The translations under genes and the position numbers were made by a program. This document shows positions 1 to 38,400 of a stretch of 38,400 nt of DNA, one piece after another; the stretch's first letter is position 1, and each line of letters begins with the position of its first letter. The DNA comes from a virus: UHGV virus genome UHGV-1783985. One strand, written 5' to 3'. Below the pieces are notes generated by a model. The model did not search any database. It was not told the DNA's origin and saw only the letters and a list, made by a program, of their open reading frames with translations.

Positions 1-579
1 AAAACCAGCATCTTTTTTGTGTGGAGTATCCGCTGCCGCATATGCTGCGATCTTGGCCAGCCTGTCGCATATTTCGTTTTCTCGATGCCCGGCGTGGCCC
101 TTTACCCAGTTCCACCTGACATTGTGGCGACTGGCGGCTAAATCGAGTTGTTTCCAGAGGTCGACATTCTTAACAGGCTTCTTGTCAGCAGTGATCCAAC
201 CATTTTGTTTCCACCCCTTCATCCAGAGGGTCATACCATTTTTGAGATACTGGCTATCTGAGTGCAGGATCACGTTGCAGGAGAATTTAAGACGTTCCAA
301 AGCTATCAGGGCGCCCATCATCTCCATGCGATTGTTTGTGGTGCTGTGGAAGCCGTCGGAAAACTCGCGTTCTTCGCCGCGGAACTGAAAGACGATGCCA
401 TATCCACCGGGCCCGCCTGGGTTTCTGAGACAAGAGCCATCACTGAAAACTTTGACCGTCTTAAACCGGGGATTAAATTCGACAACTGGCGTTTTGAAGT
501 TTTTGCGGGGGTGTTTTTGATACTGGTGCTGCGCACGGCCGGCTGCCGTTTTTCGTCTGGCGTGTGTGCTTGTCGTCAT
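1..579 (-). CDS. rnhA: Ribonuclease HI, C-terminal end runs off the window start; about 45-aa basic N-terminal extension
   Basis: Minus-strand frame open from ATG at 577-579 (GGAG 7 nt upstream) to position 1 with no stop, so absent from the supplied ORF track. Translation contains [68 protein letters not shown], colinear with E. coli RNase HI. Confidence 0.85.
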
Positions 580-1159
580 CTCTAACTCCAAAGCGTGCGC
601 CGCCGCCCGTTTTTCCTCGCGCGTGTGCGCACGCGTGTTTATACATATTTATTTTCAATGAATTACTTCCCAGATCGGGTTTATTTTTACCTGAACTGAG
701 CGAACGAAGTGAGTGAAGTTCACCTCGAACGAAGTGAGAGGTTGTCTTTTCAGGTAATACTCTCCCAGGGAGGTGAGTATAAAAATTCCTCACCAACCTG
801 GTCGTTTCATAACCTGAAAAGTTATGACCTAAGTCTACTGCCAGCTTAGGCTTGGGAAGTTATGGATGACAGCACCCCAGAACCGAGATCTTCCCACACT
901 TTATGAAGGGGAGTACTGGATTCAACCTCTCGAAACACCCCAGACTCGACAATCATAAAGTGACCCTTCTCTCTGCCCACTTTGGTTCCCCCTTCCCCAA
1001 CCCCTAAACGGTGCCGGTTCTACGCTGGTAGTGAGCTTTTTTAAACCTGACGCCAGTGACGCTTACCCCCACCCATCAGGTCGAGCCTCCAGTCTACGAC
1101 TGGAAACTATCAGATCTTAGCACTTATCATTCACTTTATAAATAGTTAGTACTTATCTA

Positions 1160-1390
1160 TCATTGTGATTGGTTGCTTTCTCGACCATGTAGTTGAACAT
1201 TCAAGGCAAACACCTCATTGATCAACTCACCTAAAAGCTGTTCAACAAGTTCGCGATGCTCCCCAAGATGCAAGCACTTAATTGCCCATTCATACAAGGT
1301 GAAAGCCTGCTCGCGATCTTTCATCATTTCACGAGCCTGAGCCAGAAAATCGCTCTCTACGAGTGCAACGACATTAGTCGGGTATGACAT
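1160..1390 (-). CDS. Hypothetical small protein
   Basis: ORF 1160..1414; likely start is the internal ATG at 1388-1390 (MSYPTNVV) preceded by AAGGAA with 6-nt spacer. Confidence 0.5.
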   Translation of the reverse strand: MSYPTNVVALVESDFLAQAREMMKDREQAFTLYEWAIKCLHLGEHRELVEQLLGELINEVFALNVQLHGRESNQSQ

Positions 1391-1575: not shown

Positions 1576-2181
1576 CTAAGCAGCCTTCTTTGATGGTCTT
1601 TTTTTCCTGATCACATTCGCAGGGTCATACCCTCCCAGACTTTTCATGACGTCCAGAGGGATCTTGCTTATAGAGTGCCCAGCATCCTGACAGAATCCTC
1701 GAAAAACAACGAGCATACTGCCACCGGGGTTGATGTTTACTTCTACCTGACCCAAATTGACGTCAGGCTCGACAAACGCTACGCGGCCACCAGACAGAAT
1801 AATCGTCTCATTCGCACACTCTGTTGCACGCTCATACCACTTTGTATCGAGGGATTGAGGAATTAGCATCACGGTTGTAACTCCGCGAGCCTGCTCACGT
1901 ATAGCCGCATCAATCCAGGGGGAGATTTTGGAGTAGGGTGGATTGAGGAAGGCAATTGTACCTGGCTGCCCCCATTCAGATTTCAAAGCATCGCGCTCAA
2001 CGCCTATGAAATTTGGCAGCTTTGCATTGTCCTTGTTGCAGGCAACGTCAACATCAAATGTCACTCCAAGATAACGTTGAATGGCAGAAAACAGCCAATC
2101 AGGTGTTCTCCAGAGATCACGAAGAGAGTTGTCGCGCTTTCGCTGTTTGATTTTTTCAGCTGCAATCATCTTCTTTCTCAA
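1576..2181 (-). CDS. DNA N6-adenine methyltransferase (phage Dam-like)
   Basis: 201-aa ORF with DLWRTPDWLF near N-terminus and NPPYS catalytic motif, as in phage/bacterial N6-adenine methyltransferases. Confidence 0.75.
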   Translation of the reverse strand: MRKKMIAAEKIKQRKRDNSLRDLWRTPDWLFSAIQRYLGVTFDVDVACNKDNAKLPNFIGVERDALKSEWGQPGTIAFLNPPYSKISPWIDAAIREQARGVTTVMLIPQSLDTKWYERATECANETIILSGGRVAFVEPDVNLGQVEVNINPGGSMLVVFRGFCQDAGHSISKIPLDVMKSLGGYDPANVIRKKRPSKKAA

Positions 2182-3416: not shown

Positions 3417-3518
3417 ATGGAATCATCAAAAAAAGAACAATTTAGCAACTTATTAATAAAAGTTGTTATTGGTATCGCTGTAGTTGAATACATTTATCTT
3501 TTTGTGAGATATTTTTAA
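3417..3518 (+). CDS. Candidate 33-aa hydrophobic peptide
   Basis: ATG at 3417 preceded by AAGGAAA; translation MESSKKEQFSNLLIKVVIGIAVVEYIYLFVRYF; stop immediately followed by the 3521-3560 hairpin. Below the 60-aa ORF-track cutoff. Confidence 0.3.
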   Translation: MESSKKEQFSNLLIKVVIGIAVVEYIYLFVRYF

Positions 3519-3520
3519 TA

Positions 3521-3560
3521 AAAACCCTACTTTAAAGTTAATTTAAAGTAGGGTTTATTC
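3521..3560. terminator. Intrinsic terminator hairpin (bidirectional)
   Basis: Inverted repeat AACCCTACTTTAAA / TTTAAAGTAGGGTT flanked by A-run and T-run, directly downstream of the minus-strand exonuclease gene and the plus-strand small ORF. Confidence 0.6.
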
Positions 3561-38230: not shown

Positions 38231-38317
38231 TGGCGGAGAGTAATGGAATCGAACCATCATCGCTTGCGCAATGGGACGGTTTTCAAGACCGTTTGAGCAC
38301 CATGCTCCCTACTCTCC
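38231..38317 (-). tRNA. tRNA-Ser (anticodon UGA), long variable arm
   Basis: Minus-strand sequence GGAGAGT...ACGGT-CTTGAAA-ACCGT...GGTTCGATTCC...ACTCTCCGCCA folds as a cloverleaf with 7-bp acceptor stem, anticodon loop CU-UGA-AA, long variable arm and encoded CCA. Confidence 0.8.
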
Positions 38318-38325
38318 AATTGTTG

Positions 38326-38400
38326 TGGTGCCGGTTAACGGACTTGAACCGCTGGCCATTCGCTTACAAAGCGACTGCTCTACCAACTGAGCTAAACCGG
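38326..38400 (-). tRNA. tRNA-Thr (anticodon UGU), 5' end just beyond window edge
   Basis: Minus-strand sequence CCGGTTTAGCTCAGTTGGTAGAGC...GTTCAAGTCC...AACCGGCACCA; D-loop and T-loop consensus, anticodon loop UU-UGU-AA; first acceptor nucleotide lies past position 38400. Confidence 0.75.

Follow-up and report, generated by a model that had tools for sequence, protein, structure and literature searches.

The virus genome UHGV-1783985 was analysed here as one strand of 38,400 nucleotides (nt), the whole of which we call the window, and near its left end, between a gene for RNase HI (rnhA) and a gene for a protein of 76 amino acids (aa), an otherwise gene-dense sequence is interrupted by a gap (580-1160) with no convincing open reading frame (ORF). 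What occupies this gap? An original prediction, made from the sequence without database searches, had listed a direct repeat, short hairpins and a G-quadruplex (G4) motif there and had offered three readings: a structured non-coding RNA (ncRNA), a packaging or recombination site, or a promoter or leader for rnhA. We find that these features are parts of one minus-strand RNA gene, running from about 1107 to 660, and not separate oddities. That the locus is a structured minus-strand RNA gene we regard as very probable; to the fuller proposal, that it is a free-standing ncRNA gene of ~450 nt which acts through its fold in the plasmid-prophage state and is specific to the SSU5/pHCM2-type phage-plasmids of Enterobacteriaceae, we give a probability of roughly 55%.

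The window is a piece of such a phage-plasmid. Its bases 400-1500 match 12 phage records, which include Salmonella SSU5, Escherichia phage Cyrano (= pLF82) and several Klebsiella phages, and the 580-1160 stretch alone is matched by 687 PLSDB plasmids from Klebsiella, Escherichia, Enterobacter, Salmonella (including pHCM2 of S. Typhi), Citrobacter and Cronobacter. The element is carried by 232 of 5426 complete E. coli genomes (~4%), at 234 matching places, all but two of them on plasmids and nearly all on plasmids of 106-120 kb; no weak or partial chromosomal matches occur among these genomes, the query is covered to at least 80% in each matching record, and the sites are blank in the RefSeq annotation. 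Besides the main clade there is a second, pCP102-like clade, about 69% identical, which together with the divergent copies L170, L172 and L178 was reached through DNA patterns and through searches with the 76-aa protein and contig look-ups. The RNA gene and its core are placed as follows.

660-1107, minus strand: ncRNA gene as delimited here, about 450 nt, based on covariation-supported structure throughout, counts of G·U against A·C pairs, and RNA sequencing (RNA-seq) of E. coli LF82
666-1086, minus strand: highly conserved structured core of about 17 helices, 89-97% identical to the window

Comparison of the window with eight main-clade relatives shows that the gap is the best-conserved part of its neighbourhood. 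Outside the core, identity to the window is 63-70% in the 5' part of rnhA, 71-76% in the small ORF upstream, 47-65% in the spacer at 580-665 and 49-57% in the promoter region at 1087-1159, and the exceptions to low flank identity are flanks that share a recombinant block with the window. Two plasmids without rnhA show where the conserved block ends on the left: in pEh65_1 a betT insertion reaches about window position 663, and pCP102 has no rnhA at all. The original prediction had taken 580-1160 as a single region; the functional unit within it is the minus strand of about 660-1107, with a variable spacer and a GC-rich palindrome at 580-660 and the predicted promoter at 1114-1142. It was right that the gap holds no convincing ORF, none exceeding 50 aa except one of 107 aa (473-796, minus strand, TTG start) which overlaps the start of rnhA and is not conserved.

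The sequence is conserved in the manner of RNA base-pairing. From 22 non-redundant copies aligned as minus-strand sequences (A2), RNAalifold derived a fold of 98 base pairs in 17 helices, 44 of these pairs showing at least one compensatory double change. When the 3' partners were slid by one to three columns, standard pairing fell from 97.3% of cells to 32-49%, the number of pairs with double changes from 44 to 7-13, and the covariation score from 0.362 to 0.05-0.10, and none of 500 column shuffles reached the observed values for four of the five measures. The copies represent only about five to six lineages, and independent events are fewer than the cell counts suggest; the slid-partner control, which preserves this relatedness, still separates cleanly from the observed pairing. 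Individual helices give the same picture between clades, with three double changes in GGGAAG/CUUCCC (855-860/891-896) and two in CACUUUAUGA/UCAUAAAGUG (897-906/953-962). One copy, L175 (Logan SRR8137545), was left out of all alignments; it is C-to-T converted, apparently assembled from bisulfite-treated reads.

The same pairs identify the transcribed strand. G·U cells number 309 among them and A·C cells 15, and since a plus-strand reading would turn the G·U pairs into mismatches, the strand is fixed as minus. The minimum free energy is -165.6 kcal/mol (z -4.6) for the minus-strand fold and -138.3 kcal/mol (z -3.3) for the plus strand. The fold is a conserved arrangement of many helices in which a 5' stem-loop is followed by several multi-branched domains, and its parts, together with the flanking signals, are listed here from 5' to 3' in the sense of the RNA.

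1114-1142, minus strand: predicted sigma-70 promoter, with -35 TTTATA (1142-1137), a 17-nt spacer and extended -10 TGcTAAGAT (1122-1114)
1087-1105, minus strand: 5' stem-loop P1 (CCAGUC-GUA-GACUGG), directly after the predicted start site
976-1004, minus strand: purine-rich tract GGGGUUGGGGAAGGGGGAACCAAAGUGGG, the earlier "G4 motif", purine-rich in all clades
923-931, minus strand: loop GAGAGGUUG, candidate pseudoknot arm, a perfect 9-nt complement to 736-744
765-801, minus strand: hairpin CCAGGUUGGUGAGG...CUCACCUCCCUGG, helix 15, with 11 pairs, three of them with double changes, and 97.5% paired
736-744, minus strand: CAACCUCUC, the other candidate pseudoknot arm, overlapping the stem of the local hairpin that bears the first repeat
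701-738, minus strand: two copies of CUCACUUCGUUCG (RNA sense), at 726-738 and 701-713, in the 3' domain of the RNA
593-634, minus strand: GC-rich palindrome or hairpin with conserved CGCGCGAGG(A)n, separating the RNA from the ribosome-binding site of the gene that follows

All the sequence features that the original prediction had named are present at or near the places it gave. The direct repeat CGAACGAAGTGAG does lie at 701-713 and 726-738; by our own estimate an exact 13-nt repeat within 580 bp has a chance probability of ~0.003, and its copies are invariant in the main clade and read CUCACUNCGUUCG / CACAUUCGUUCG in the second. The GGTGAG/CTCACC hairpin belongs to the longer inverted repeat 765-777/789-801, and the CCAGTC/GACTGG hairpin was found at 1089-1103, though its loop is TAC and not TACG. 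The minus-strand G-run at 976-1004 is also real; four G-runs, however, occur only in the main clade, the pCP102-like clade having GAGAGGGAGAA or similar and L170 and L172 differing again, and because the motif is confined to one clade the G4 is not the conserved feature. What every lineage retains is the ability of the purine tract to pair with a pyrimidine tract, CUCCCCUUC, and the tract more likely forms this purine/pyrimidine helix than a G4. A second distant contact is suggested by GAGAGGUUG/CAACCUCUC, in which 92% of cells are paired and compensatory changes appear in L178 and L172, and which competes with local hairpins. Both long-range contacts are likely, and we infer from the alignment that the RNA contains at least one long-range pseudoknot.

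The beginning of the RNA can be placed by its putative promoter. An extended -10 of the form TGnTAnnnT with a TTTAMM -35 at 17-nt spacing is present in 18 of 20 representative copies, in surroundings only ~50% identical; L010 and L172, without strict extended -10 spacing, keep good -10 hexamers (TAGAAT and TATGAT). In most lineages the promoter lies ~25-35 nt upstream of the first invariant block, GAUGGGUGG, and in the window it would start transcription at about 1107. The RNA thus appears to have its own sigma-70 promoter with an extended -10. Immediately after the start, P1 keeps its pairing and varies in sequence in most lineages (CUUCCGGA/UCCGGAAG, CUGGCAGA/UCUGCCAG, GUCUGG/CCAGAC), and is weak in the pCP102-like clade and in L170. 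At the other end, the last invariant motif is UCUGGGAAG (~675-667), beyond which come an AT-rich spacer and then the GC-rich palindrome at 593-634, whose CGCGCGAGG motif is kept in all clades, including those where rnhA has been replaced. Since no U-tract follows this hairpin it is not a canonical terminator, and a terminator scan gave no match there, nor was an alternative pairing of the terminator/antiterminator kind established; the palindrome may serve as an operator, or it may mark where the transcript is processed or stopped. The 5' end given here follows from the predicted promoter, and the 3' end, which is not mapped, may reach ~590.

According to published expression data the locus is abundantly transcribed in lysogens, at a level far beyond that of either neighbouring gene. 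CYRAN_81 of Cyrano (44 aa; window 846-980, minus strand), which falls inside the RNA, is the sole ORF to have been annotated in the gap. In E. coli LF82 lysogens it is listed among the "morons", 12-fold above local background (PMC9928086, Table 1). In LB medium its level is ~117 fragments per kilobase per million (fpkm), compared with 9.5 for CYRAN_80, the small ORF upstream, and 8.4 for CYRAN_82, which is rnhA (PMC9928086, S1 Table), a 12- to 14-fold excess over both neighbours by these values. Expressed as log2(fpkm+5), with two replicates per condition, CYRAN_81 stands at 6.8 and 6.9 in LB stationary phase, 9.3 and 9.0 in B1, 6.9 and 6.9 in B6, 9.0 and 8.2 after 1 h in macrophages and 10.35 and 10.3 after 6 h, while its neighbours range from 2.6 to 5.8 across all conditions (PMC9928086, S1 Table). 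The rise in macrophages is ~10-fold. From these levels relative to the neighbours it follows that the transcript is abundant, separately controlled (or separately stable) and condition-responsive in the plasmid-prophage state.

Taken with the covariation, the strand-specific G·U pairs and the conserved promoter, the RNA-seq strongly supports the structured-ncRNA option among those first offered. As to function, we propose that the RNA would work by virtue of its fold, serving one or more proteins as scaffold, partner or decoy, and not by long antisense pairing, by acting as a site on the DNA or simply by leading into rnhA. The co-inherited 76-aa protein would be the obvious candidate partner. 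Because expression is high in the plasmid-prophage state and rises ~10-fold inside macrophages, we place the role in that state, where it could concern maintenance, host interaction or control of the lytic programme. Several points weigh against this reading. All copies come from one phage-plasmid group with about five to six clades, and many of the compensatory cells were inherited and did not arise independently. The transcript ends are predictions and not mapped positions. The expression data set is stranded (both strands are plotted), but strand-specific counting of the reads could not be confirmed. The idea of a protein partner rests only on strict synteny with the 76-aa ORF, the model of which matches no known RNA-binding fold. 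A bolder version, in which the RNA belongs to an undescribed class of large (~450 nt), pseudoknotted ncRNAs with a catalytic or ribonucleoprotein (RNP) function of its own, governing plasmid-versus-phage lifestyle or host physiology in macrophages, we hold only tentatively and judge somewhat more likely to be wrong than right.

The genes around the RNA all lie on the minus strand; in order of transcription the locus comprises the dam methylase gene, the 76-aa protein gene, the gap and the gene for RNase HI.

1576-2181, minus strand: dam methylase gene, first in transcription order at the locus
1160-1390, minus strand: 76-aa protein gene (phrog_5343), always directly upstream of the RNA
1-579, minus strand: rnhA, RNase HI with an N-terminal extension (Pfam RNase_H, 9.5e-44), running off the window; the variable downstream neighbour

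The family of the 76-aa protein is confined to these elements according to a protein-database search. Its AlphaFold2 model has three helices (pLDDT 82) and finds no fold match in the PDB, for which reason the idea of a Rop-like protein is unsupported, and neither Pfam nor PHROGs supplies a function. On the other side of the RNA the gene content changes. Most lineages have rnhA there; the pCP102-like clade lacks it and has a Tad2-like (anti-Thoeris-like) gene; one plasmid has betT; elsewhere a hypothetical gene is found; and in Buttiauxella convergent Gabija-like genes (OLD-TOPRIM plus a UvrD-type helicase) have replaced rnhA after the fifth codon. The slot directly 3' of the RNA (window 1-579; records L004, L168-L171, L173 and L007) appears to be a hot spot where accessory and defence-related genes collect, and the gathering of defence and anti-defence cargo in it bears on the evolution of these elements.

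The alternative that survives best is that of a cis-acting leader or attenuator, in which the RNA would be a long structured 5' leader of a downstream early or accessory operon and the hairpin at 593-634 would stop most transcripts unless a signal permitted read-through. Its orientation agrees with that of all neighbours, the GC-rich hairpin with its CGCGCGAGG motif stands directly before the ribosome-binding site of rnhA and is kept in all clades, and a leader-to-gene ratio of 12-40x is typical of an attenuator in the "off" state. A leader of this kind should have one constant downstream gene, but the position is held by rnhA, the Tad2-like gene, a hypothetical gene, a truncated rnhA with convergent Gabija-like genes, or betT, and the convergent genes of Buttiauxella leave nothing to regulate. 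The combination of a constant 76-aa gene upstream and a variable gene downstream favours a free-standing RNA and argues against a leader dedicated to rnhA. In addition, 450 nt with ~17 helices and a pseudoknot far exceeds known leaders, and the hairpin has neither a U-tract nor a match in the terminator scan. We consider a leader unlikely, and its original form, a promoter or leader for rnhA, is weak, since the element persists where rnhA is absent or replaced and its RNA is 12-40x more abundant than rnhA mRNA.

Less probable again is that the transcript is the primer of an R-loop origin, in the manner of ColE1 RNA II or of oriF/oriG of phage T4, with a hybrid at the G-rich tract cut by the adjacent RNase H, probably for lytic replication. 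In most lineages an RNase HI gene does lie directly downstream, the RNA does have a G-rich tract, the phage-plasmid encodes T4-like UvsW, UvsY, gp32 and RecA-like proteins, and the element surpasses the genes in conservation and survives swaps of its neighbours. Extrachromosomal mycobacteriophage prophages are reported to have RNA-based origins (PMC7157519), which also counts in favour. However, the pCP102-like clade has no rnhA beside the RNA, conservation does not extend to the G-runs, and a consensus scan finds no plus-strand promoter-like site of the RNA I kind at 480-1100, although so simple a scan may miss a weak promoter. A lytic origin would not be expected to be strongly expressed in lysogens without induction. 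Cyrano shows no inflection of GC skew at the locus, which is weak evidence, as the skew is dominated by transcription and rises monotonically with it. An origin of the plasmid was likewise rejected as an identity for the element, the replicon being the RepA gene 17 kb away, and an iteron-type origin, for which an array of at least three direct repeats of about 17-22 bp beside the rep gene and an AT-rich unwinding element would be expected, was rejected on the further grounds that there are only two 13-nt repeats and that these are part of the conserved 3' domain of the RNA. Neither the leader nor the primer explains all lineages.

A function exerted by the DNA itself, as a pac or cos site, a recombination site, an iteron array or a G-quadruplex, is very improbable. 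The direct repeats and the G-run are present, and a crossover between lineages does fall inside the element, but the crossover is simply explained by high identity, there are just the two 13-nt repeats, the four G-runs are not conserved outside the main clade, and the pairs are held through RNA-specific G·U, by 309 to 15. Map position, too, gives no support to the packaging or recombination site first suggested: in Cyrano (108 kb) the terminase genes occupy 0.1-2 kb and the element 78.5-79 kb, opposite ends of the map, or ~30 kb apart on the circular map. Least credible of all is a decayed pseudogene or a small-protein gene such as CYRAN_81, which is annotated in Cyrano and intact in many main-clade copies but is frameshifted or interrupted in several lineages, Klebsiella-type and Buttiauxella among them, with 1-2-nt indels or stops in the L010, L053, L173, L033 and L178 lineages and in the second clade, where it can no longer be recognised, the RNA helices being preserved nonetheless. 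Conservation far above that of real genes speaks against decay.

The crossover itself is visible in the mosaic make-up of the window, of which 400-779 is identical to Klebsiella phage ST13-OXA48phi12.3 (record L003) and ~701-1500 is nearly identical to E. coli phage Cyrano (record L001). These identities place a junction of lineage recombination inside the conserved RNA gene, at ~701-779, where high sequence identity offers a simple explanation for it. The RNA gene appears to be a recombination junction at which lineages swap flanking modules, and this too bears on how the elements evolve.

Searches for further relatives returned the same family. Two specific DNA patterns scanned against IMG/VR led only to it, and a shorter third pattern and a looser gapped one gave chance matches only. 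A scan of GTDB genomes with the 76-aa protein added no more than two Kluyvera loci, and a metagenome scan revealed no clades beyond those already known. Two Logan contigs, L176 (2726-3437) and L177 (SRR28417476 and SRR28417470), have the same synteny of a 76-aa ORF, a long gap and RNase H genes; their 712-nt gap could not be aligned to the family by nhmmer and shares only short motifs, namely the 5' hairpin and ...AUCUGGAACUCC near the end, and may be a very divergent member or a non-homologous analogue. The IMG/VR contigs L018 (799-825), L027 (6304-6330) and L054 (1756-1782) come from an unrelated GC-rich phage that shares a 22-nt hairpin motif, which there forms a perfect hairpin (ACAACCTC-GAACGTAGTGA-GAGGTTGT), 8 nt from the GC palindrome CGTGCGCGCACG and near a GGGGGGAAGGGGGG run; it lies within a 442-aa ORF without a Pfam match, the region is unmatched in the phage database, and it gave no functional clue.

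Other observations concern the rest of the window. Between dam and the 76-aa ORF, 1469-1575 is an AT-rich region of inverted repeats and hairpins, which may be a promoter or operator region and is the source of weak miRNA-like Rfam matches. At 3417-3560 (plus strand), in an AT-rich gap (GC ~0.22-0.26) and opposite to its neighbours, a 33-aa hydrophobic ORF, MESSKKEQFSNLLIKVVIGIAVVEYIYLFVRYF, has a Shine-Dalgarno sequence, and a strong hairpin with a T-run (3520-3560) comes after it; the ORF resembles a type I toxin or a small membrane peptide. The end of the window (38231-38400, minus strand) carries genes for tRNA-Ser(UGA) and tRNA-Thr(UGU), which match the tRNA cluster of Cyrano at 39.0-39.3 kb.

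A match to a known RNA family, for which the original prediction had proposed a covariance-model scan, was not obtained over the core. With Rfam 15, which covers GOLLD, ROOL, HEARO, OLE, RNase P, 6S, tmRNA, group I and II introns and riboswitches among others, the whole window at the gathering threshold gave only the two tRNAs at 38.2-38.4 kb, and region 450-1600 at E values up to 10 gave chance-level matches of the miRNA type, none over the core. ARAGORN detected no tRNA or tmRNA in 1-38230. Searched for antisense targets, the rest of the 108-kb Cyrano genome offers no complementary stretch of 14 nt or longer; the longest is one 13-mer, at chance level. The searchable literature contained no description of an RNA in SSU5, pHCM2 or phage-plasmids.

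The phage-plasmids that carry the RNA are common in clinical E. coli, Klebsiella, Enterobacter and Salmonella Typhi, and current annotation leaves the RNA blank or mislabels it. Public records contain two such errors: the "RNase H" coding sequence SSU5_090 (L002 3571-4335) has an over-long reading from an upstream start that runs into the RNA gene, and the 44-aa "hypothetical protein" CYRAN_81 (L001 4286-4420) has been placed inside it. Large structured bacterial RNAs without a known function are rare, and past ones have proved to be ribozymes, RNP scaffolds or unusual regulators. If the bolder version given above is true, the RNA would belong to a new class whose size and conservation are on a par with those of RNase P RNA, tmRNA or the orphan giants.

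Among known systems it is like GOLLD, ROOL and HEARO in being several hundred nt long, encoded by a mobile element or phage, rich in covarying helices and highly conserved, with a function that cannot be read from the sequence. It differs from them in matching none of their covariance models even at E values up to 10, and in occurring in phage-plasmids of Enterobacteriaceae, tied to a 76-aa ORF and not to tRNA clusters or IscB. ColE1 RNA II is likewise a plasmid RNA of ~0.5 kb with conserved folding, and its G-rich segment has a counterpart here in a tract that is purine-rich in all clades and has G-runs in the main clade only; genes for RNase H and a small helical protein adjoin the RNA described here. 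In contrast to ColE1, no antisense promoter like that of RNA I was found in the scan, one clade does without the RNase H gene, the RepA that serves the replicon is encoded 17 kb away, and the small protein has no Rop-like fold match. The immunity antisense RNAs of plasmid-prophages (c4 of P1/P7, CI of P4, CB of N15) are ~70-100 nt long and have short complementarity to a target in the same operon. The present RNA resembles them as a non-coding RNA expressed in the prophage state of a plasmid-prophage, but it is ~450 nt long and has no significant complementarity elsewhere in the Cyrano genome. Finally, 6S RNA and CsrB/CsrC are abundant, structured, stand-alone transcripts that sequester proteins through their shape or through repeated motifs, and the recurring CUGGG/CAGGU motifs and two UCACUUCGUUC elements of the present RNA could be protein sites of a comparable kind. 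Unlike those RNAs, it has no GGA-loop repeats, no 6S-like mimic of an open promoter and no Rfam match, and its abundance is lowest in stationary phase, the opposite of 6S.

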